A stretch of 64,000 bases of DNA from a virus: positions 1 through 64,000 of the IMG/VR virus record IMGVR_UViG_3300044981_000152. One strand, given 5' to 3'. The notes beneath the pieces were generated by a model. The model was not told where the DNA came from. It saw only the letters and a list, made by a program, of their open reading frames with translations, and did no database searches. Each line of letters opens with the position of its first letter. Position 1 is the first letter of the stretch. The position numbers and the translations under genes are program-made. Shown here piece by piece: positions 15,201 to 34,054 of this stretch.

Positions 15201-16617
15201 CAACGTCGCCTACTCCCACTGGGCCGTGTTCGGCGCGTACCTGCCCGCGTGGCGGCTGACCGCCCACTACTGCGCGGCCATCACCGGGTTCGGGCTGCTC
15301 CCCGCCCCCCAGTCGCTGGCCCTGTCCACGGTCACCTCCACCGACACGGGCGGCACCGCGACCTCCTACACCCCCGACGGCACCCTGTTCGACGGCTCCT
15401 ACGGCATCAGCGGGAACGTCTTCACGTTCACCGCCAAGACGGTGGCGGTGGCGGGCACGGCCACGTCCGGGCCGTCCGCCGAGGCGGCCACGGCGGGCAT
15501 CATCGACCCCTCCAGCGGCGACGGCTGCGCCGTCTGGGCATCCTGGTCCGCCCTGGCCCCCAAAGTGCAGGTCTACACCGCCGCCGCCGCGAACGCCGAG
15601 ACCCTGGCCTCGGCCGCGGCCGGGTCCGGGGACTCGTTCTCCTCCGGATACGGGTCCGGGGCGTCCGGCCACGGGGTCTGCCACGTCTCCGGCGGCACCG
15701 GGGCCGCGCCCCCGTCCGGGCCGTCCCAGCTCGGCGACATCGTGGCGCAGCGGATCGAGCGGATCCTGGGCTACGGCGGGGTCACCTACCCCGGCCGGGC
15801 GATCGACGAGACCCTGGCCACCCTCCCGGTCCAGGCCGCCCTCGACGTGGGCGGGCAGCAGGCCGGCGCGAACATCCAGAACCAGGTCTACAGCGACAAC
15901 GGGCTGCTGAACGTCGACAACTGCGGGGTGCTGTGCTACCGGGCCCGGCCCCGCCTGGCCTCGGACACGGTGATCTGGAACCTGTCCTCCGCCGGCCCCG
16001 CCTACGGGCTGCCGTTCGCCCCGGACCAGGCGTTCGGCAACGACCCGCAGCGGGTGTGGAACACCATCCAGGTCGCCCCGTACTCCCCGGACGGCGCCAC
16101 CCCGCCGCTGATCACCCCGTCATCGGCATCCGCGGTGGCCGTCTCGCAGCAGCAGTACGGCAACCGGCCGCTGCCCTGGTCGGTGTCCTACCTGCAGTCC
16201 GCCGCGGCGATCCAGGCGCAGGTGAACTGGCTGATCGCCCAGTTCGGCAGCCTGAGACGGCGCGTGACCTCCCTCAAGGCCGACGCCGCGTCCCACCCGG
16301 CGGCGTGGCTGTTCGTGCTCGGCGCCAACCCCGGCGACCTGGCGCAGGTGACCGACCAGCCGATGCAGGGCGGCCCCCTGTCCGTGGGCACCTACCGGAT
16401 CAGCTCGATCAGCAGGCGGATCACGTTCGGCGCGAACAAGACCAGCCCCGAGGCCAGCCTCACCATCGTCGCTGACCCCGAGCCTGCCTGGTACTGGACG
16501 AACCCGCCCGCAGGCGGCGGTGGCGGTGGCGGGGGCGGGCCCGGCTCCCCGGTCACTGACGAGGCCGCCGCCGCCATCACCGACGAGGCGGGCAGCACCA
16601 TCCTGAGCGAGGGCTGA
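12289..16617 (+). CDS. Large fused tail-tip/hub protein with LamG-like insertion
   Basis: 1442 aa. Tail-hub-like QLDN..DLTPSNPASPFYP motif, LamG-like YAWWPMDD and WHCVDI, and a C-terminal TDE..ITDE.G motif. Confidence 0.8.
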   Translation: MPSPAQFCNGTAGAGVSSATVSVTAATGGGDALAVIVSMGGSGSPTVTSVTDTKSNTYTLVASYTTAAPFLYLYAATGATAALTTSDTVTAHFSGSTSSGAGIIGADCPGVATVDVNATPASGTSTAPSVSGTPAASGETAIAAFTWSNPGGSGTVGSPFTQLGQNHITSNIYTTCSYDTSPPSGSPLTASYAISSTTWRAILVTFKPSAPPSPFTPPPRPAKGAQAAVRGSGKGARGAPRVFVPVTPSVFTLPSRPSRGAQAAARGAGKGAQGAPAVAIPPPAVNQWAATFSQPSSFGTTPPALQSVVVPLTPASSVGGGTGIVTPGNWLFCITGSNQDTPLPAVTWGCADDIHSWWRPLAPSGAGGNTRCGIWYTPNLARQAGAVYVAPSGAASSFSVLVVEIAGIGPWDTVTGFYGAFANAATALSLSLPAPGPASFVIAGVCGDLTTAGQSFAPAGWHPLTAVTASNGTDHSCDAVLTAATLASTASPVSVTASSSSPCDLSGFILAVQIGAASPIPSVPGVSPGWAGRMILEFAPGGGFGTPPDQLNWVALSDSAAAPGTVKRFWGWADNSGVPYRLGQLQSGTGSVQLDNSTGPSGGGGGDLTPSNPASPFYPDVTTGTPLRLRAALGTLRDGTVVNRWYVIQRNALDWTEKRTGTLRNWVEAGLTDIWSAVAASCPSPYRGEIGQEASLYAWWPMDDQPQAGGVQPTSLVNAAPGNTNVLNITASPGGVTGGHQYTTAGVDATSDADPAPPSVAVYTCGALQGWMYGDPPSSPQSSAAGNPVTASPGSAAWQQAGMLGSTGANGWFLAVNDPAFPPLSSGVTVKGWFNAAFFGTATASTAADLSGDNLAGQPYAPITLCTLSTSAAPVAVLQLDRATGHLNLITYNGATGTSSSVYAGSDLRSQSWHCVDIQLTTTTWAVLVDGDLLASASGTATGMSNFTWLTLNGDYGTNGGASPSSIQHGGNVAYSHWAVFGAYLPAWRLTAHYCAAITGFGLLPAPQSLALSTVTSTDTGGTATSYTPDGTLFDGSYGISGNVFTFTAKTVAVAGTATSGPSAEAATAGIIDPSSGDGCAVWASWSALAPKVQVYTAAAANAETLASAAAGSGDSFSSGYGSGASGHGVCHVSGGTGAAPPSGPSQLGDIVAQRIERILGYGGVTYPGRAIDETLATLPVQAALDVGGQQAGANIQNQVYSDNGLLNVDNCGVLCYRARPRLASDTVIWNLSSAGPAYGLPFAPDQAFGNDPQRVWNTIQVAPYSPDGATPPLITPSSASAVAVSQQQYGNRPLPWSVSYLQSAAAIQAQVNWLIAQFGSLRRRVTSLKADAASHPAAWLFVLGANPGDLAQVTDQPMQGGPLSVGTYRISSISRRITFGANKTSPEASLTIVADPEPAWYWTNPPAGGGGGGGGGPGSPVTDEAAAAITDEAGSTILSEG

Positions 16618-17852
16618 TGTCCAAGATCACGGCGTACTCGGCGATCGCCAGCGTCAAGACCGACGACCTGCTCCTGGTCGTGGACGTGCACGACACGAGC
16701 ATGGCGTCCACGGGCACCGACAAGAACATCCAGCTCGGGCAGCTTCCCGCTGTCACCGCGTTCAACGCGAAGTCCTACGGCGCGGCCGGCAACGGCGTCA
16801 CCGACGACACCACGGCGCTGACGAACTGGATCAACGACGTCAACGCCACGACGGCCGGGGCGTTCGCCTACCTGCCCGCGGGCCGGTACATGGTCTCCAG
16901 CGCCCTGCCCGCCGTTACCGCGAAGGGGGTCACGTTCCTCGGCGCGGGCTGGTGCTACACCAGCTCGGAGACGCAGGGGTCGATGATCAGCGCGACCTCG
17001 TCGTTCAGCACCAGCGGGACCGTGTTCACGGTGAGCGGCGACGGCTGCCAGATCCAGGGCATCACCCTGGACGGCGGCGCCCGGGCCGCGAACTGCATCA
17101 CGATCCAGGGCGGCAACTGCCGGTTCTTCAGCGCCGGGGCCCGCGCCCCGGGCAACGGCGGCACCTGCGTCAACATCGCCACCGGGGGCAACTCGGCGTG
17201 GGTGTCGATGTGCCACATCAACGGGGTCACCAACACCGGCAACGGCATCACCGGGATCATGGTCAACGACACCGACCTGATCGTCATCGGCGCCAAGGTG
17301 GACAACACCAACACGGCGTGCGTGCAGATCCTGACCCCCGCCGGCGGCGCGATGATCGTCGACTCCCACCTGACCGCCGGGTCCGGCGGCGGCAACGACA
17401 TCTGGATCAACGGCTCGCCGAACAACGTCGTCATCGCCAACAACCGGTTCGACAACTGCCTCGCCTCCCCGGTGCAGATCTCGCCGGGGTCGTCCACCCC
17501 GGCGAATATCCAGATCACCGCCAACCAGTTCCAGTCCAAGACGATGACCGCCAACACCTTCGCCCTGATCGCCGTCGACACGACCACTCACAGCGTGAAC
17601 GGGCTGCACATCGTCGGGAACGCCGGCTACGGCGGGAGCGGGAACCTGGCCCAGAACGGGCTGGCCGCGCAGACCGTGGCCGGGGCGGCGTCCTCGAGCC
17701 CTACGAAGATCGCCTCGGCCGGGAGCCTGTTTAACTCCAACAACTTCTGGGTCAACTCGACGATGTACGCGGCGTCCAGCAGCCCGACCGTCGGCAGGGG
17801 GAACATCATCACCAATGACGGGGCGACGTACTCGGCTGTGACCGACATCTGA
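16617..17852 (+). CDS. Tailspike-like beta-helix protein (pectate-lyase-3-like), possible depolymerase
   Basis: FNAKSYGAAGNGVTDDTTAL...YLPAGRY motif followed by Asn-ladder repeats (IANNRF, ITANQF, IVGN). Confidence 0.85.
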   Translation: MSKITAYSAIASVKTDDLLLVVDVHDTSMASTGTDKNIQLGQLPAVTAFNAKSYGAAGNGVTDDTTALTNWINDVNATTAGAFAYLPAGRYMVSSALPAVTAKGVTFLGAGWCYTSSETQGSMISATSSFSTSGTVFTVSGDGCQIQGITLDGGARAANCITIQGGNCRFFSAGARAPGNGGTCVNIATGGNSAWVSMCHINGVTNTGNGITGIMVNDTDLIVIGAKVDNTNTACVQILTPAGGAMIVDSHLTAGSGGGNDIWINGSPNNVVIANNRFDNCLASPVQISPGSSTPANIQITANQFQSKTMTANTFALIAVDTTTHSVNGLHIVGNAGYGGSGNLAQNGLAAQTVAGAASSSPTKIASAGSLFNSNNFWVNSTMYAASSSPTVGRGNIITNDGATYSAVTDI

Positions 17853-17898
17853 CCGCCCTGGCCGTAAACGGAGGCGCCGAACCGGGACGGGGGACCGA

Positions 17899-18210
17899 GT
17901 GCCGGACTCCGCGTTGCTGTCCATACTTTCGAGCGCGGGCGTAGCCGGGGTCTTCTGCGTGCTGTTCATCATCGGCATGCTGCCGACCCGCGGCGAAGTA
18001 AGCCGGCTGGAGAAGAACGCCGACGACTGGAAAGCCGCCTTCGAGCGCATGGACGCCGCCCGCGAAACCGAGCGCAAGGCCAACGACGAGCTCCGCGCCG
18101 CCAACATCGTGCAGGCGCAGCGGGCCGACGCGGCGGTGGAGACCGCGAAACTGGCCCGCGAGCTCCTGGAGGACTTCAGGCGGAGGGCCAGCAATGCGCC
18201 TGCTCCCTAA
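17899..18210 (+). CDS. Single-TM coiled-coil protein of the lysis cassette
   Basis: N-terminal hydrophobic helix followed by a charged helical region. Confidence 0.65.
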   Translation: MPDSALLSILSSAGVAGVFCVLFIIGMLPTRGEVSRLEKNADDWKAAFERMDAARETERKANDELRAANIVQAQRADAAVETAKLARELLEDFRRRASNAPAP

Positions 18211-18433
18211 GAAGAAGGTTCACGGCGGCGGGGCCGGGGACGCCATGCGCGCCGCGGCCGAAGCCGGCGTCGAGGCGGGCGAGCGGCTGGCCTCGGCCGG
18301 CGAGGTGCACGCCGCAGCGGCCCGGCAGGCGGCCGGGGAGAAGGGCATCATCGACGACCTGCGGGCCCTGCGGGAACGCAATCACATCGCCGCTCTCATC
18401 GTCGCGTCGCTCCGGGAGGCAGGTGATCACTGA
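18194..18433 (+). CDS. Small hypothetical protein of the lysis cassette
   Basis: GGAGG RBS. Overlaps both neighbours. Confidence 0.65.
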   Translation: MRLLPKKKVHGGGAGDAMRAAAEAGVEAGERLASAGEVHAAAARQAAGEKGIIDDLRALRERNHIAALIVASLREAGDH

Positions 18434-18858
18434 TGGTCAAGCGCGTCACCTGGCGTTCCTGGGCGGCAACCGCCGTTATCGCCGCCGCCTGGCTGGTCTT
18501 CGGGATGTTCTACAGCAACGCCGGCGGCAGCTTCGAGGAGTGGGTCTTCAAGGTCGGGACGCTCGGCGGGACGTTCGTGCCGCTGATCCTGGTCGGCGCC
18601 TACCTGGCCAGCGGGAACCGGGGGACCGCCAACGACGTCGGGGCCGGGATGATCCGCTGCGCCCTGGGCATCGTGATCATCTGCGCGCCGCTCGCCTACG
18701 CCTCCTGGGCCGACGGCGGCGCGATCACCCCGTCGGTGTGGGGGTGGATCGAGGTGTCCGGCCCGGCGGCGGTGTCGCTGTGGCTGCTGCAGCTGGCCTT
18801 GTCGATCTCGCGGACCCTGCGGCACGGCCGGGGCGGGAACGGCGGCGATAAGCCGTGA
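18433..18858 (+). CDS. Putative holin (about 4 TM helices)
   Basis: Four hydrophobic segments and a basic C-terminus, upstream of the endolysin. Confidence 0.6.
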   Translation: MVKRVTWRSWAATAVIAAAWLVFGMFYSNAGGSFEEWVFKVGTLGGTFVPLILVGAYLASGNRGTANDVGAGMIRCALGIVIICAPLAYASWADGGAITPSVWGWIEVSGPAAVSLWLLQLALSISRTLRHGRGGNGGDKP

Positions 18859-19118
18859 CTAGCACCGCCCGCGCCGGCTGGCAGTGCCCGGAGTGCAAAA
18901 CGGTCTACAGCCCGGACGTGACCGAGTGCCGCTGCGCCACCGCAAGGCAGGCCGCTCCTTCGTGGCCGCAGAACCTGACGTGGCCGGCCGTCATCCCCGG
19001 CGGTGCTCCGCATAGCACGTCAGCACCGTGCACCTGCCCTTCAGCATGGGGTGGCCTCTACCCTCCGCCAGCATGCCCGGCCCACGGGCAGACGGAGATG
19101 CTGCAGGTGAGGTGCTGA
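18855..19118 (+). CDS. Small Cys-rich protein
   Basis: GWQCPECK..YSP....C.C motif and a GTGA overlap. Confidence 0.6.
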   Translation: MTSTARAGWQCPECKTVYSPDVTECRCATARQAAPSWPQNLTWPAVIPGGAPHSTSAPCTCPSAWGGLYPPPACPAHGQTEMLQVRC

Positions 19119-19505
19119 ATGCAGCAGCACACCGTCCAGCAGATCCAGAAGGGCCGCAATGAGGGCAAGTACGTCTACACGGGCGGCAACCGGCGAATCG
19201 GCCGGTACATCGAATGCTGCGACGGCGGCTGGGAAGACGAGGGTGTAGGCCACGCCACAGCGGATGAGGCGTACCGGTGTATGCGCGTGCGCCTGCTGGA
19301 GAAGGTGCGCCTTGACCGCAAGCTAGGCGACTGGTCCGGCTGCCGGGCACCATCGACGGACGGAACGCGCTGCGATGTCCCGACGAAGGACGCCGCCGAG
19401 ATCCCGCCGATGCACTTCCTCGAGCCGCTCTGCGACACGCACCGGACGTTCGATGTTGTCCAGGAGATGTGGGGCGGTCCCGGCGACTGGTCGGGATCGT
19501 GGTGA
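19119..19505 (+). CDS. Hypothetical Cys/His protein
   Basis: GAGGTG RBS. Abuts the previous gene. Confidence 0.65.
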   Translation: MQQHTVQQIQKGRNEGKYVYTGGNRRIGRYIECCDGGWEDEGVGHATADEAYRCMRVRLLEKVRLDRKLGDWSGCRAPSTDGTRCDVPTKDAAEIPPMHFLEPLCDTHRTFDVVQEMWGGPGDWSGSW

Positions 19506-19651
19506 TCCCGTGCTTCCTTTCGCCGCCATCCTTGCCCTGACCTGCGCCCTGGCCCTCGACCTCGCCGGGAACGGGCCGAGTACCCCGTTTCGCTGCTGCC
19601 GGGCTCGTGCTCCTGTTCCTCGCCGCGGTTCTTCCCTCTAGGAGGCGCACG

Positions 19652-20032
19652 GTGAGCCGACTGCGCTGGATGGCGCTGCCCGCGGCAGCGGTGGCCGTCA
19701 TCGCCTGCGCCTTGTGGTGGGCCCGGATCCGTAACGAGTTCTTCGTCATTCTCGGCAGCCGCAACGAGGCCGGGGGCTGGTACGGGTTCCACTCGGGTGC
19801 GGGCGGGGCCGCCTGGATGGGCGTGATACCCGCGTTGGCGCTGTTCTACTGGCATGGCACCTGTCATGACAGCCCGTGGTGCCTGCGGTGGGGCAAGTAC
19901 CCGGCCGCAGGCGGCGTCTTCAAGCTGTGCCGGCATCACCACCCGGACCTGCGGGGCATCCGGCCGCACCGGGACCTGATCCACCGGATGCACCGCGAGC
20001 ACCAGGAACGGCTGGCGGGCAGGCCCTCGTGA
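19652..20032 (+). CDS. Two-TM membrane protein with a Cys/His-rich C-terminus
   Basis: GGAGG RBS at 19641, two hydrophobic stretches, CH...CLRWG...CRHHH. Confidence 0.7.
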   Translation: MSRLRWMALPAAAVAVIACALWWARIRNEFFVILGSRNEAGGWYGFHSGAGGAAWMGVIPALALFYWHGTCHDSPWCLRWGKYPAAGGVFKLCRHHHPDLRGIRPHRDLIHRMHREHQERLAGRPS

Positions 20033-20373
20033 CCCACCGCCGCCGCGCCCTGGCCATCATTATTGCCGCTGTCGTGCTCGACGTTGCGCTCGGCGTGGCC
20101 TTCGCAGCCGCCGAGCGCGTGAGTGTCGCGGACGGCCTGTACTGGGCCACGACAACGGCAACGACAGTGGGCTACGGGGATATCACTCCGCACGGCTGGC
20201 TGCCGCACCTAGTCGCGATCGGCGTGATGATCACGGTAATCCCCTTGTTCGCCAGCGCTTTTTCCTTGCTCACAAGCGGCCTCACCAGCACCCACGTGGC
20301 AGCGAGTGAGAAACGGATGAAGGCTCACCTTGAGCGGCGGCTGCGGGAGCACCTCGGAAAGGGGGCGGGATGA
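20029..20373 (+). CDS. Minimal 2-TM potassium channel (KcsA/Kcv-type pore)
   Basis: TM1, pore helix DGLYWATTTAT, filter TVGYGD, TM2. 114 aa, with GTGA and ATGA overlaps to both neighbours. Confidence 0.9.
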   Translation: MTHRRRALAIIIAAVVLDVALGVAFAAAERVSVADGLYWATTTATTVGYGDITPHGWLPHLVAIGVMITVIPLFASAFSLLTSGLTSTHVAASEKRMKAHLERRLREHLGKGAG

Positions 20374-21176
20374 CCGCGAGCGCGCAGGGAATCGACGTCA
20401 GCGACTTCCAGGGACAGTACGGCTGGAGCGCGGCGAAGAAGGCTATCCCGGACCTTGCCTTCGGCGTCTACCGGCTCACGCAGGGCCTCGGTGCCAGCGG
20501 GACGGCATCTCCGGACCCGGATGCAGCATGGAACCACGCCCAGATCGCCGCGCAGGGACTGCACCGGGGGGCGTACCACTTCCTTGACCCGCACCTGCCC
20601 GGCGAGGTGCAGGCGCAGTACTTCGCCGGTGAGCACGCGAAGCTCGGCACGACGGCCGCGGACATGTTCTGGCTCGACAACGAGACGGCCGGCGAGTCCC
20701 CGGCCGCCGTGGCAGCCTGCGCGACCGCGTTCATGACCGAGCTGGGCAAGCTGGTCCCGCACAACCCCCGCGGGGTCTACACGTTCATCGACTTCGCCCG
20801 GCAGGGGAACTGCGCCGGACTGGAGGGCTACCCGCTGTGGCTCGCTTACCCGGCCGCTGACGCGCCTTCCTCGCCGCCGCCGTGGCACCGCTGGACGTTC
20901 TGGCAGTGGGGCACCAGGAACGGCACCGACACGGACGCTTTCAACGGCACCGTCTCGCAGCTTGACGACTGGATCGCGTCCTACCAGCCGAAGACGGGGC
21001 CGTACCGTCATACCGCGCCCGGCAACCGGACGCTCGGTCAGATCGCAGCGAGCAGGGGCACGACACCGCAGCACATCGCCGAAGTGACGATGGGGGCGCT
21101 CTCAAATGCGGACATCGTGACCATCTCGGGGCTGGCGCTGCCTGCCGGTTTCCCGTTTTATACGACCAATCCGTGA
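20370..21176 (+). CDS. Endolysin, GH25 muramidase with LysM-like C-terminus
   Basis: GIDVSDFQG, GAYHF, WLDNE (DxE), LWLA, FWQW and D.DAFNG motifs. C-terminal TLGQIAA..GTT. Confidence 0.9.
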   Translation: MTASAQGIDVSDFQGQYGWSAAKKAIPDLAFGVYRLTQGLGASGTASPDPDAAWNHAQIAAQGLHRGAYHFLDPHLPGEVQAQYFAGEHAKLGTTAADMFWLDNETAGESPAAVAACATAFMTELGKLVPHNPRGVYTFIDFARQGNCAGLEGYPLWLAYPAADAPSSPPPWHRWTFWQWGTRNGTDTDAFNGTVSQLDDWIASYQPKTGPYRHTAPGNRTLGQIAASRGTTPQHIAEVTMGALSNADIVTISGLALPAGFPFYTTNP

Positions 21177-21583
21177 TCCAGCAGCCACCCTTTGACGGCC
21201 TGGGTCATTTCCGCTTCGGGCCAGGACCCGTCCGGCCGGGTGATCCCCGCCAGCCTGCCGGCCAGTTCCCCGGCGAGGCGTTCCCGGCACTCGTGGATCG
21301 CCTCGCTGATCACCTTCGCCACGCCGGCGGGGATGACGAGCACCTCCCCGTGCCAGCCGTCCGCCGGGTCGTCGGCCCAGAAGCCGGCCACGTCAAGGCC
21401 GTAGTGCCTGCTCGCCGAGACGTGCCCGCGCCACACGGCCAGCCCGGATGCCGTGGCGGCCTCCGCGAGCTGCCGTGCTGTCTTCAGGTTCCGCTCCGCG
21501 GCCAGCCTTTCGGCTTCCAGTTTCCGCTCGACCCGCTCACGCACGGCGTCGGCAGCGGCCCAGTCGACCTCGATCTCGCTCAT
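21158..21583 (-). CDS. Hypothetical protein, antisense
   Basis: CATGCT-6nt-ATG start and a protein-like sequence. Confidence 0.65.
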   Translation of the reverse strand: MSEIEVDWAAADAVRERVERKLEAERLAAERNLKTARQLAEAATASGLAVWRGHVSASRHYGLDVAGFWADDPADGWHGEVLVIPAGVAKVISEAIHECRERLAGELAGRLAGITRPDGSWPEAEMTQAVKGWLLDHGLVV

Positions 21584-21876
21584 CCCGTAAGCATGGCACG
21601 CGGGCCGGGCAGCCCCGCATCCTCCGGCCATGGCCCCTGCGGGCCGGGGTAGCCGTCCGGGTAGTAGGCGCACACGATCCACGGGCCGTCCGGGGCGATC
21701 CGGTACCGGGCCGCGCAAGCGTCCCAGATCTCCATACCCGGCGCAGGCGCCCAGTAGATCGCATGGCCCAACGGCGACAGGAAGCTGACCAGCACGGTCC
21801 CGTTCAGCCGCACTAGCTGGTACTCGACAATCGCCGCCGGGTCCGGCTGCGCTCCGCGCACCTCTAGCTCGCTCAC
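21580..21876 (-). CDS. Hypothetical protein, paralog of 26120-26422
   Basis: VEYQLVRL.G..LVSF...EIW..CAAR.RI.PDGPW.V.AYYP.G.PGP.G.WPE is shared with 26120-26422. Confidence 0.85.
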   Translation of the reverse strand: MSELEVRGAQPDPAAIVEYQLVRLNGTVLVSFLSPLGHAIYWAPAPGMEIWDACAARYRIAPDGPWIVCAYYPDGYPGPQGPWPEDAGLPGPRAMLTG

Positions 21877-21880
21877 GGGG

Positions 21881-22099
21881 TCACCGCCGCTCATACCGGG
21901 CGGTGAACGACGCGAGGATCTCGTACTTGTCCGGGGTCACGCTCTTGTCCAGCCGCCGCGAGCAGCCGACGCCCGGGTAGCGGCTGTCGTACCAGTAGTC
22001 GTCATCGAAGCTGCGGACCAGGACAGCGCGATGTTCCCAGTCGACGGCAATCGTGCCTGGTGCCCAGCGGCGGGGCTCGGGCGGCCTGCTGCTGCTCAT
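21881..22099 (-). CDS. Hypothetical protein, antisense
   Basis: CAGAAT-6nt-ATG leaderless-type start. Confidence 0.6.
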   Translation of the reverse strand: MSSSRPPEPRRWAPGTIAVDWEHRAVLVRSFDDDYWYDSRYPGVGCSRRLDKSVTPDKYEILASFTARYERR

Positions 22100-22123
22100 C
22101 CGCCCATTCTGCACGTTCCCCTG

Positions 22124-22154
22124 AGCCCCCTGCCGCCCGGTATGGGGCTTTTCT
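22124..22154 (+). terminator. Putative intrinsic terminator
   Basis: AGCCCC...GGGGCT followed by TTTCT. Confidence 0.45.
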
Positions 22155-22173
22155 CATGCCGGGAGGCAAGCAG

Positions 22174-22572
22174 GTGTCCAAATTGCTCTGGTCGCAAGGA
22201 AGCCTGACCGTTACATCAGTGACGGATCTGGTGAGTTCTTTGTACGTCGAAACCATTTACGGGGTGCAAGACTTCACCATTCACCTCAACCCGACCTCGG
22301 GGAATCTCCTGCTGGGAGCACACGCCGTCCTGAGTAGTTCGGCAACTGGTTACATCCTGCCGCCTGGCGTGGATGGGGGCTACGAAGGCGCAGGTAGTTG
22401 GGGCGCCTGGACGGTCTCAGAGGGGTCCAGTTTTTCCCTCGAATTCTCACAGCCCAACACCAGCGGCGAGAACTGGATGCTGTTCGGCGGTGATTCCGAC
22501 TACAACTCGATGCTCTCCGTAGCCCCCGCCTCGGACAGCGCCACCTTCAATTACATGCTGTTCCTCGGCTGA
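22174..22572 (+). CDS. Beta-rich hypothetical protein (lower GC)
   Basis: GGAGG RBS and GTG start. Ser/Gly/aromatic-rich. Confidence 0.6.
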   Translation: MSKLLWSQGSLTVTSVTDLVSSLYVETIYGVQDFTIHLNPTSGNLLLGAHAVLSSSATGYILPPGVDGGYEGAGSWGAWTVSEGSSFSLEFSQPNTSGENWMLFGGDSDYNSMLSVAPASDSATFNYMLFLG

Positions 22573-22591
22573 CGAGAAAGGGAGTTAGGAA

Positions 22592-23080
22592 ATGGCAATC
22601 TCCGACATCTACACTTTTAGGTCGGGCTCAGTCTCCATCGCGGCGACGAGCGCCACGGCGGTCATGTCCGTAGTGCCGGCCGGCACCACCGTCCGCGGCT
22701 GGGTGGTCGGCGTCCGCGTCGACATCGGCGTCACCGCCGCAGCGGCCGGGAACTCGATGCTGTTCCAGCTCGCCCGGCCCGGCAACACCATGACCGGCAC
22801 CAGCCTCGCCGTCGGCGACCCGCACGACTACTCCGCCCCCGCATCGATCATGGAGTCCTGCACCACCTGGTCGACCGCGCCGACCGTCGGCACGATCTTG
22901 TGGGAGCAGGAACTGCCGCAGACCACCGGCTCAGCCTGGGAGGAATTTCCGCCCCTCGGTTACGAATGGGGCATTCCGGCGATTGCCAACGGCAGCGCGA
23001 ATGCCGGGGTGCATTTGTTCGTGACGGCGAGCGTCGCCACGAGCACCCCGGTGTTCGTTGACTTGATCGTCAGCGAGTAA
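22592..23080 (+). CDS. Small beta-rich virion protein (paralog of 11751-12242)
   Basis: 162 aa with shared motif spacing and a C-terminal Glu. Confidence 0.8.
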   Translation: MAISDIYTFRSGSVSIAATSATAVMSVVPAGTTVRGWVVGVRVDIGVTAAAAGNSMLFQLARPGNTMTGTSLAVGDPHDYSAPASIMESCTTWSTAPTVGTILWEQELPQTTGSAWEEFPPLGYEWGIPAIANGSANAGVHLFVTASVATSTPVFVDLIVSE

Positions 23081-23180
23081 CCCCGTCATTCCGGGAGGCC
23101 CTGGTTGCGGTGCGGGCCGGGGCCGCCCGGAGCGGGAGGAGTAATCCCGCCCCCCTGCCCTCGGGAGGGGGTGAGCCCTC

Positions 23181-24029
23181 GTGTCCTTCACCGTCAAGGT
23201 CACCCTGTCCGGCACAGGTGCCACGAACGACGACCTGACATTGCAGGTCAAGGTACTGACCGGCGCGACCGAAGCAAGCGGGACCAGCGCCGCGAGCCGC
23301 GGCGCGGCCACCGCGCAGGCCAGCATCACGCCGAACTTCTCGCACTCGCTGCCCGTCTTCGCGATCGAAGACGACACCTCCAGTACCGCGTTCACCGCCG
23401 CCGCCAGTAACACGTTCTACAACAACATCACCAACTCTGCTAACGGCGCGTGCGGCGCGGACGGGTACTACTCGGGCACCGTAACCTCCGGTACCCCGGT
23501 CACAGTCGGGTCGTCAGCGCCGACCGGGCAGACCACCGCGTGGGCGGTCTACGAGGTGCCCCCGTCGGGCGGCAGCACGCCCGCGGTGGACGGGTCATCT
23601 CCTGCTGTCGTCAGCGTGCAGGGCAGCGGCGCGCTCACCGGGACGACAGCCGCGTTCACGCCGCCTGCGGGCAGCGTGCTCGTGGCGCTAGTCTCCGCGG
23701 ACGCCAACACCAGCAGCGGCGCCCTCGGCATCGCCATCACCGACACGTCCGGCCTGGGGCTGACCTGGACCGCCAGGGCGAACTCGAACACGACGACCGC
23801 GGCGCCCGCGGCGGCGGTCTTCACCGCCACGATGCCGGGCGCGGGTGTTTCGGGCAAGGCCCAGCCCCGCGCCACGGTCCCGGTCCCGCGGCGGCGGGCC
23901 CCGCGGGTCACGTGGTCTGCGGAGGCCGGGCTGCTGAACGCTCACGGCCCGTCCGGCCTGGTCCCGTCGCTGATGACCAACCGGACTGAGGTGACCGGCA
24001 GGAGCACGGGCCGGATCATCCGCCGCTGA
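23181..24029 (+). CDS. Ser/Thr-rich beta-domain structural protein ending in one QPRATVPVPRR repeat
   Basis: Composition resembles the N-terminus of 12289-16617. Its C-terminal motif matches the repeats of the next gene. Confidence 0.75.
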   Translation: MSFTVKVTLSGTGATNDDLTLQVKVLTGATEASGTSAASRGAATAQASITPNFSHSLPVFAIEDDTSSTAFTAAASNTFYNNITNSANGACGADGYYSGTVTSGTPVTVGSSAPTGQTTAWAVYEVPPSGGSTPAVDGSSPAVVSVQGSGALTGTTAAFTPPAGSVLVALVSADANTSSGALGIAITDTSGLGLTWTARANSNTTTAAPAAAVFTATMPGAGVSGKAQPRATVPVPRRRAPRVTWSAEAGLLNAHGPSGLVPSLMTNRTEVTGRSTGRIIRR

Positions 24030-32668: not shown

Positions 32669-34054
32669 ATGAGCGATGCACCCAGGACGCGGAGAGCCAA
32701 TCTGGAGTCGTGGACCAGCAGCGAGCCGAACGCCCGCGGCTACTACGAGGCCAAGGTCTGGATGGGCTTCAAGGCCAGCGGCCAGCCCGACCGGCGCCAC
32801 ATCCAGCGCAAGACCCTCGCCGCGGTACGCAAGCGGGTCCGCGAGCTGGAGCGGATGCGGGACAGGGGCGCGGTCGGCCAGTCCGGCAAGGTGCCCACCG
32901 TCGAGGAGATGCTGACCCGGCACCTGACCGTCGTACTCGTCCAGCGCGGCCGGGCCCCCCGCACGATCGCGGACTACTGGTCTAAGTGCCGCAACGACAT
33001 CTTCCCGCGGTGGGGCGGCCAGCGGGTCGACCGGCTGCGCCCGGAGCACATCGAGGACGGCCTGGCCGCGATGCTCGACGAGGGCCACGCGCCGTCTCAT
33101 GTCCGCAAGGTGCTGGCCATCCTGTCATCGGCGTACGAGGTGCAGGCGAAGCGGGCCGCGGCCTACGGGATGGCCGGCGGGACGACGCTCACGAACCCGT
33201 GCCGGTTCGTGGAGCCGCCCGAGCTCGGCGAGGCGAACCGCAAGTCACTCACCCGCAAGCAGGCCCGCGCCGTCCTGGCCGCCGCGCGGGGGCGCGGCCA
33301 GTTCGCCCGGTGGGCGGCCGGCCTCAGCCTCGGGCTGCGGCAAGGTGAGGTGCTCGGGCTGCGGTGGCGGTTCATGGACATCGACGTTCCCGGGGGCGAG
33401 CAGGGCGAGGCGCGCGTCTGGGCGCAGCTCCAGCGGCTCACCTGGGAGCACGGCTGCGATGACGCGCACGCCTGCGGGCGCAAGTACCACAAGACCCGGC
33501 CGTGCCCGGCGAAGTGCTCACGGCACGCCCGCGCCTGCCCGCCGCCGTGCCCGGACGGCTGCGCGGACCACGCGCGGCACTGCCCGAGGCGCAAGCTCCC
33601 CCGCGGTTCGGTGCGGCTGAACGGCGCGCTGGTGCTGCGGGAGACGGTCAAGGAGAAGAAGCGCAAGACCGTCCCCGTCTACCCGGAGGTGTGCGAGGTG
33701 CTGCGCGAGCACCGCTCGGCCCAGTACGAGGCGCGGATGCTCGCCGGGTCCGAATGGACGGACTACGATCTCGTCTTCTGCCAGTGGAACGGCTCGCCGG
33801 TCGACCCGCGGCGGGACTGGCAGGAGTGGGCCCGCATCCTCGAGGCCGCGGGCATCCCGCACGCCGGGGTCCACGCCGGGCGCCACACCGCCGCGACGAT
33901 CGCCATCGGCGAGGGGGCCGCGCTTGACGCGGTGCAGGATCTGCTCGGCCACGCCGACGCGAGGACTACGGCGGGTTACGTCCACACTGCCTCGCCGGCC
34001 GCCAGGAGCGCCGCGAGGGCGGTCGGCCGGGCCCTGTTCGAGGGCGACGACTGA
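32669..34054 (+). CDS. int: Tyrosine integrase with a Cys/His-rich insertion
   Basis: GLRQGE, HAGRH, LGH and TTAGY catalytic motifs. TACCAT-7nt-ATG leaderless start. Confidence 0.95.
   Translation: MSDAPRTRRANLESWTSSEPNARGYYEAKVWMGFKASGQPDRRHIQRKTLAAVRKRVRELERMRDRGAVGQSGKVPTVEEMLTRHLTVVLVQRGRAPRTIADYWSKCRNDIFPRWGGQRVDRLRPEHIEDGLAAMLDEGHAPSHVRKVLAILSSAYEVQAKRAAAYGMAGGTTLTNPCRFVEPPELGEANRKSLTRKQARAVLAAARGRGQFARWAAGLSLGLRQGEVLGLRWRFMDIDVPGGEQGEARVWAQLQRLTWEHGCDDAHACGRKYHKTRPCPAKCSRHARACPPPCPDGCADHARHCPRRKLPRGSVRLNGALVLRETVKEKKRKTVPVYPEVCEVLREHRSAQYEARMLAGSEWTDYDLVFCQWNGSPVDPRRDWQEWARILEAAGIPHAGVHAGRHTAATIAIGEGAALDAVQDLLGHADARTTAGYVHTASPAARSAARAVGRALFEGDD

Follow-up and report, generated by a model that had tools for sequence, protein, structure and literature searches.

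Why does a phage genome carry a gene for a miniature potassium channel directly ahead of its endolysin gene? Small K+ channels encoded by viruses have long served as popular model systems for channel structure and function. The locus considered here is located in the first 64 kb (referred to as the window) of a 99,220-bp IMG/VR record from a soil metagenome (CheckV 100%, about 70% GC). The record represents a soil-derived phage of an actinobacterium, which is temperate, since it encodes a tyrosine integrase (33626-33991). A DNA-level search with positions 16001-24000 against cultured phages matched nothing. The region is preceded by an ORF of tape-measure size, a tail ORF and a tail protein resembling pectate lyases (16617-17852), and the gene orientation flips to the minus strand past the endolysin. 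A terminator-like hairpin (19492-19510, plus strand), a pattern match only from a consensus scan, ends the preceding gene and is separated by a 146-nt gap from a three-gene unit; a second one (21128-21152, plus strand; pattern match) is located within the 3' end of the endolysin gene. Two small Cys-rich proteins of 87 aa (18855-19118) and 128 aa (19119-19505) without a family match closely precede the unit, and in another locus (L100) a homologue of the latter immediately precedes the counterpart of the first gene of the unit (the partner described below).

The first-pass annotation of this region had described a 114-aa protein of TM-pore-TM architecture with an intact filter, and this description proved correct. 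The gene (20029-20373, plus strand) matches Pfam Ion_trans_2 (PF07885; E 2.2e-13) with 50.3 bits, which is above the curated cut-off of 22.5, as well as PHROG 14690 and PHROG 7872 (E about 2e-14), and a sequence search of the PDB returned KCNQ4, KcsA and Lmo2059, in each case with their pore module. According to hydropathy, TM1 spans residues 7-23 and TM2 residues 61-77 with both termini on the K/R-rich, i.e. cytoplasmic side, and the succession of TM1, pore helix, T-V-G-Y-G filter and TM2 of a two-TM K+ channel is present, followed by a conserved amphipathic C-terminal helix. A Thr occupies what we take to be the position of Glu71 in KcsA. Altogether, 258 channel relatives were found; across 30 relatives (52-82% identity) the filter block TATTVGYGD is unchanged, and 22 columns besides the filter are invariant. 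By its sequence, the product is the pore subunit of a two-TM K+ channel of the KcsA type.

The ORF containing the channel is uninterrupted over 19876-20373, with a third-position GC content (GC3) of 0.51 upstream of the GTG at 20029 and of 0.79 from there onward; the low value ahead of 20029 is explained by the upstream gene, whose 3' end occupies this stretch in a different reading frame. Since the relatives are 104-139 aa long and alignable from an identical N-terminus, the step in GC3 together with this shared N-terminus identifies GTG 20029 as the start and 114 aa as the length of the product. A scan of genome contigs with the channel returned only two distant loci. Longer channels (186-195 aa), which are considerably extended at the C-terminus, precede head-tail and major-tail genes in other loci (L115:6342-6926, L118:5281-5841, L119:6336-6923).

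Directly upstream of the channel, a gene for a 126-aa membrane protein (19652-20032, plus strand) is located, which we refer to as the partner. Its start is most likely the GTG at 19652, as a Shine-Dalgarno-like AGGAGG (19640-19645, plus strand) 6 nt before this codon supports it over the ATG at 19670. Hydropathy and charge, the alignment of relatives and an AF2 model outline a protein whose two TM helices (TM1, 6-22; TM2, 49-65) are connected by an outside loop with a conserved G..Y.F.SG motif and followed by a cytoplasmic tail, in which a predicted zinc knuckle of the form C-x5-C...C-x2-H-H is followed by a basic His-rich helix; the C-terminal 61 residues carry 11 K/R. C71, C77 and C93 are invariant and H96 and H97 are conserved in at least 90% of the aligned sequences. 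The AF2 model (pLDDT 83) contains two long helices, short beta hairpins across the Cys/His stretch and a C-terminal helix. The partner has no match in Pfam, PHROGs, NCBIfam or PADLOC, and fold searches with the model (Foldseek against the PDB, BFVD, and VIA with a best Z of 3.3) gave nothing beyond noise. A profile search of 1.84 billion representatives nevertheless retrieved 1225 partner relatives (cluster representatives) at E<=1e-3, which are 85-190 aa long among the 150 matches listed, and none was found in any of the 50,697 cultured-phage records searched.

The suspicion that this upstream two-TM Cys/His protein goes with the channel was strongly upheld. In every readable related phage locus (about 40 distinct loci from uncultured phages), the partner lies directly upstream of the channel, and in 22 of 31 distinct loci its stop codon overlaps the channel start by 4 nt (RTGA). 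The same overlap, already described for the window, is GTGA at 20029-20032 with the partner stop TGA at 20030-20032. In a six-frame HMM search, each viral locus of the high-GC clade (L001-L004, L008-L027, L041) likewise had the partner as the immediate upstream neighbour of the channel, and over the metagenome loci counted as readable this arrangement was seen in 11 of 13. Starting from the partner, the channel is present in 13 of 17 viral loci and in 11 of 17 metagenome loci, with four of the latter lacking it and two cut by the contig end. About ten loci contain the partner without the channel, and this channel clade was never seen without the partner. From these counts in both directions we conclude that the channel clade always comes with the partner, whereas the partner can stand alone; two loci with shared synteny, L111 and L112, differ in that one has the channel and the other lacks it. 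Partner and channel thus are a fixed two-gene module. Their distances correlate weakly (Mantel r 0.18), so we do not claim co-evolution. An apparent 218-aa fusion of both proteins (L019:4689-5351) turned out to be spurious, as a frameshift joins the N-terminal half of the partner in frame with the channel. At L102:1695-1898 and L104:155-676, a lone partner gene is followed by a 173-aa protein matching PHROG 1128, which is annotated as enoyl-CoA hydratase-like (moron).

The third gene of the unit (20370-21176, plus strand) encodes a GH25 endolysin of 268 aa (Glyco_hydro_25, E 8.6e-23; PHROG 291, endolysin), which has neither a signal peptide or other export signal nor an N-terminal hydrophobic or TM segment. 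Its ATG is linked to the channel stop by ATGA at 20370-20373, as the first-pass annotation had pointed out, and AAGGGGG is located just 5' of the start. In this temperate phage, codon overlap ties the module to the gene of a cytoplasmic GH25 endolysin, at the place where the late (tail) block ends. An endolysin homologue (E 5.5e-114) follows the same module in L099, and close homologues also exist without the module.

The recurrent linkage to lysins that had been anticipated was found in part of the loci. A lysin directly follows in 8 of 20 informative loci (G000, L099, L027, L094, L089, L105, L015 and the partner-only L121), and codons overlap with the lysin start in the window, L027, L094 and L121; in the other 12 the lysin is located 3-60 kb from the module. 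At these sites, the module either follows the head-tail adaptor, precedes the major tail gene, is placed between the tape-measure gene and a tail protein, or stands ahead of an SNF2 helicase or of the large terminase subunit. The adjacent lysins belong to two unrelated catalytic types. The second hydrolase family (e.g. L121:6366-7184, L094:5722-6582, L105:7310-8056) is covered by no catalytic model in Pfam or PHROG and has 632 relatives, many of which are fused to PG_binding_1, as in L105, and some of which are named peptidoglycan hydrolase-like. A comparison with GH25 by hhalign gave a probability of 0.5%, a PDB profile search found nothing, and an AF2 model (272-aa query, four-sequence alignment) reached a pLDDT of 49, which is too poor for a fold search. 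In L116 (2750-9786), a tape-measure gene (PhageMin_Tail) of 1076 aa and a tail protein of 1046 aa flank the inserted pair, and the head-tail adaptor is followed in some loci by a papain-like-looking family without a family match, which has an Ala/Lys-rich N-terminus and a conserved C-terminal domain with an invariant Cys and His (L021:3486-4637, L001:4348-5589, L008:2474-3127).

The description of the channel position as the slot normally held by a holin is an interpretation, and no gene there matches a holin family; searches of Pfam, PHROG and NCBIfam gave no holin match for either channel or partner. In its build the partner is holin-like, as it is small, has at least one TMD and carries a charged cytoplasmic C-terminus. 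A candidate for an alternative holin in this phage, outside the conserved module, is a 141-aa protein (18433-18858, plus strand) located 0.8 kb upstream, for which hydropathy predicts four TM helices; it has no family match in Pfam, PHROGs, NCBIfam or PADLOC and no viral relatives in a pattern scan. A 103-aa protein (17899-18210, plus strand) is a possible lysis accessory; hydropathy places a TM helix at its N-terminus, ahead of a charged tail of coiled-coil-like character, and in L094/L107 a relative is encoded about 3 kb before the module. In the surroundings of the remote lysins (about 3 kb), crude hydropathy revealed only occasional one- or two-TM genes of less than 90 aa, with two of the nine regions being poorly gene-called; these lysins have few holin-like genes beside them, a point in favour of a lysis role for the module.

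What, then, might the module do? The original reasoning, which was modelled on depolarisation by the chlorovirus channel Kcv, is doubtful for bacteria, given high internal K+, low K+ in soil and an E_K at or below the resting potential. A K+-selective pore pulls the membrane potential toward E_K. In a K+-rich cell surrounded by dilute soil water, E_K should be strongly negative, so that opening a K+ channel would be expected to clamp the potential, or to buffer it, instead of collapsing it. Our preferred reading, which we hold tentatively and at not quite an even chance, is that the module is a late-expressed channel with an auxiliary subunit, which acts on the membrane potential and thereby feeds into lysis timing. 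Partner and channel would be translated together at a late stage of infection and would combine in the host membrane into a channel plus auxiliary subunit, and the resulting K+ conductance would couple the membrane potential to the K+ gradient. In an energised cell this conductance would buffer the potential, and in a de-energised cell K+ and turgor would run down; a potential-sensitive membrane step of lysis could thereby be timed, followed by endolysin release. As both proteins are predicted to be N-in/C-in, the Cys3-His knuckle and the basic tail of the partner would be positioned at the cytoplasmic face beside the inner gate and the C-terminal helix of the channel, and gating of the channel by the partner is plausible. 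The partner may itself be a hole-forming or regulatory (holin-like) element; it is more widespread than the channel and can directly precede a lysin in its absence.

The late position, the codon coupling to a cytoplasmic endolysin, the adjacency to two unrelated lysins and what has been reported on actinophage TMD lysis regulators (see below) all favour lysis timing, and a device for timing host lysis is a credible reading of these genes. The first-pass annotation thus stands with regard to the identity of the K+-channel pore, its association with the partner and the recurring lysin linkage, but is weakened by the 12 of 20 loci with a distant lysin. Further points count against lysis timing, namely the lack of a holin family match, the endolysin homologues without the module, the weak Mantel correlation, and the multiple genomic settings, which resemble the behaviour of a mobile accessory cassette. 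A more far-reaching version, which we regard as unlikely, would make the zinc-knuckle protein an undescribed auxiliary subunit of a viral K+ channel, which senses redox, metal or energy state via Cys3-His and gates the pore, and would make the module a lysis clock of the holin/antiholin type, based on K+ selectivity in place of unspecific holes, in a broad group of uncultured actinobacterial phages.

The explanation that survives best beside lysis timing is an accessory (moron) cassette for ion homeostasis without a role in lysis, which we consider somewhat unlikely but to be taken seriously. Channel and partner would tune host K+, metal or turgor for late replication and assembly, and the location beside the endolysin would be one of several insertion sites at module junctions. 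Indeed, the module occurs in many different genomic contexts with most lysins at a distance, and Greiner et al. (2018; PMC6163359) view sporadic phage K+ channels as non-essential. Moreover, at least 15 loci have, immediately before the partner, a gene for a protein with 3-4 TM helices and a length of about 140 aa (L008:4142-4597, L094:4561-4980, L027:4263-4694 and 11 further loci serve as examples). This protein, here termed mini-VIT1, matches Pfam VIT1 (PF01988) in 11 of 12 members and by profile PDB 6IU3; in many phages it would be part of the proposed cassette. Both the diversity of contexts and the company of mini-VIT1 speak for a cassette that serves ion physiology more generally. On the other hand, random placement among about 100 genes would bring the module next to a lysin far less often than the 8 of 20 loci seen for two unrelated lysin families, the codon overlaps with lysin starts also count against this explanation, and a need for K+ early in infection fits poorly with the late-gene position. 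A mini-VIT1 gene was not found in the window, and a comparison of the four-TM protein at 18433-18858 with this family showed the two to be unrelated. In one lineage, a conserved Cys-rich protein of about 240 aa with a CGTGxCRF motif and no family match is encoded ahead of the cassette of mini-VIT1, partner and channel (L097:1550-2269, L114:5191-5979 and six more), which is followed by an SNF2 helicase.

Least supported is a role in superinfection exclusion or abortive infection, in which the partner of a resident prophage would sense an incoming phage and open the channel, leading to energy collapse, by analogy with lambda RexAB or Sbash gp30/31. The phage is temperate, actinophages do possess two-gene exclusion systems composed of a sensor and an ion channel (PMC6426596), and the partner is present in 3 of the 401 Actinomycetota genomes searched. 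However, all three genomic copies lack the channel, neither protein matches PADLOC, and the module is embedded in late operons outside the immunity region, where it runs in the same direction as structural or lysis genes and shares overlapping codons with them. In addition, RexB and gp31 are proteins with four TM helices and not K+ channels, and a K+-selective pore would be expected to depolarise poorly at low external K+. We consider this explanation improbable. A decaying, non-functional gene that was acquired horizontally and is open by chance would agree with the less GC-biased codon usage pointed out earlier, which holds in this genome (channel GC3 0.80, about 2 sd below the mean of 0.892 with sd 0.047, and the seventh lowest among 123 genes), but is highly improbable for a full-length gene with conserved coupling, 258 relatives, an invariant filter and 22 further invariant columns, the more so as GC3 across 31 loci is no lower in the channel than in its neighbours, which rules out low GC3 as a trait of the family.

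While phage mini K+ channels as such are already known (PMC6163359), the partner is absent from that 2018 catalogue, and our literature search found no paper tying a phage mini K+ channel to a partner protein or to lysis. The fixed unnamed partner, the defined genetic position by a lysin and the natural channel-less variants offer three handles that make the question of function testable. Should the module time lysis, the holin paradigm would gain an ion-selective element, and the 114-aa channel and its regulator of about 125 aa would represent a minimal gated system. If it has no role in lysis, the partner would still be a sizeable unannotated family of phage membrane proteins (1225 cluster representatives), whose function needs explanation.

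Several known systems resemble the module in part. Among them are the holin-like TMD lysis regulators of actinobacteriophages, such as LysF1a/LysF1b and LysA2a/LysA2b of mycobacteriophage D29, which are reported to be small N-in/C-in two-TMD proteins with charged tails that are encoded beside or away from lysins and may sit among tail genes (Pollenz et al., PMC13056207; bioRxiv 10.64898/2026.08.27.747656). In D29, such regulators are dispersed, with one after the tape-measure gene, which the placement of the pair in L116 recalls, and energy poisons bring lysis forward (bioRxiv 10.64898/2026.08.27.747656). In contrast to the module, none of these regulators has a Cys/His knuckle or acts as an ion-selective channel, and they share no sequence match with it. 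Lambda RexAB and mycobacteriophage Sbash gp30/gp31 are likewise two-gene phage modules, with one protein believed to open an ion channel in the membrane (PMC6426596); they differ in being expressed from a prophage immunity region and in the absence of homology and of a K+ filter, and their channel protein, which works with a cytoplasmic sensor, has four TM helices compared to two in the window channel. With the VIT1/CCC1 Fe2+/Mn2+ transporters (PDB 6IU3), mini-VIT1 shares the GxxDGL and GMxxGxxxS motifs of TM1-TM2, and later TM helices align as well; at about 140 aa it lacks the cytoplasmic metal-binding domain of VIT1, and such a stripped-down transporter-like protein carried by phages appears to be undescribed.

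Phage mini K+ channels were catalogued in 2018 with their function untested (Greiner et al., Viruses 10:456; PMC6163359), including those of Mycobacterium phages Myrna and Phabba (119 aa), Streptomyces phage BillNye (123 aa), Acinetobacter phage ME3, Pseudomonas phage ventosus, Vibrio phages and Lactobacillus phage PLE. Like the window channel, these are two-TM proteins of tailed phages with about 115-125 aa and a G(Y/F)GD filter (PMC6163359). The channel of BillNye, a cultured Streptomyces phage, is a distant relative (35% identity over half of the protein, E 1e-2), and its gene is located among tRNA genes with neither a partner nor a lysin beside it, which also counts against a general link to lysis. 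Kcv of chloroviruses (94 aa) is a minimal viral K+ channel of similar size, which puts a K+ conductance into the host membrane. It is located in the internal membrane of the virion and acts at entry. The window channel, by contrast, belongs to a tailed phage without such an internal membrane, its gene has a late/lysis position, and its best sequence matches are bacterial and KCNQ-type pores. Counterparts with solved structures are KcsA of Streptomyces lividans (PDB 1BL8-type) and Lmo2059 of Listeria (4H33), with PDB matches of this type covering channel residues 8-104 at E 1e-7 to 1e-6; they have in common the two-TM pore, the TATTVGYGD-type filter and the cytoplasmic C-terminal helix. Compared to these, the window channel is shorter, viral and encoded together with an obligatory-looking small partner.
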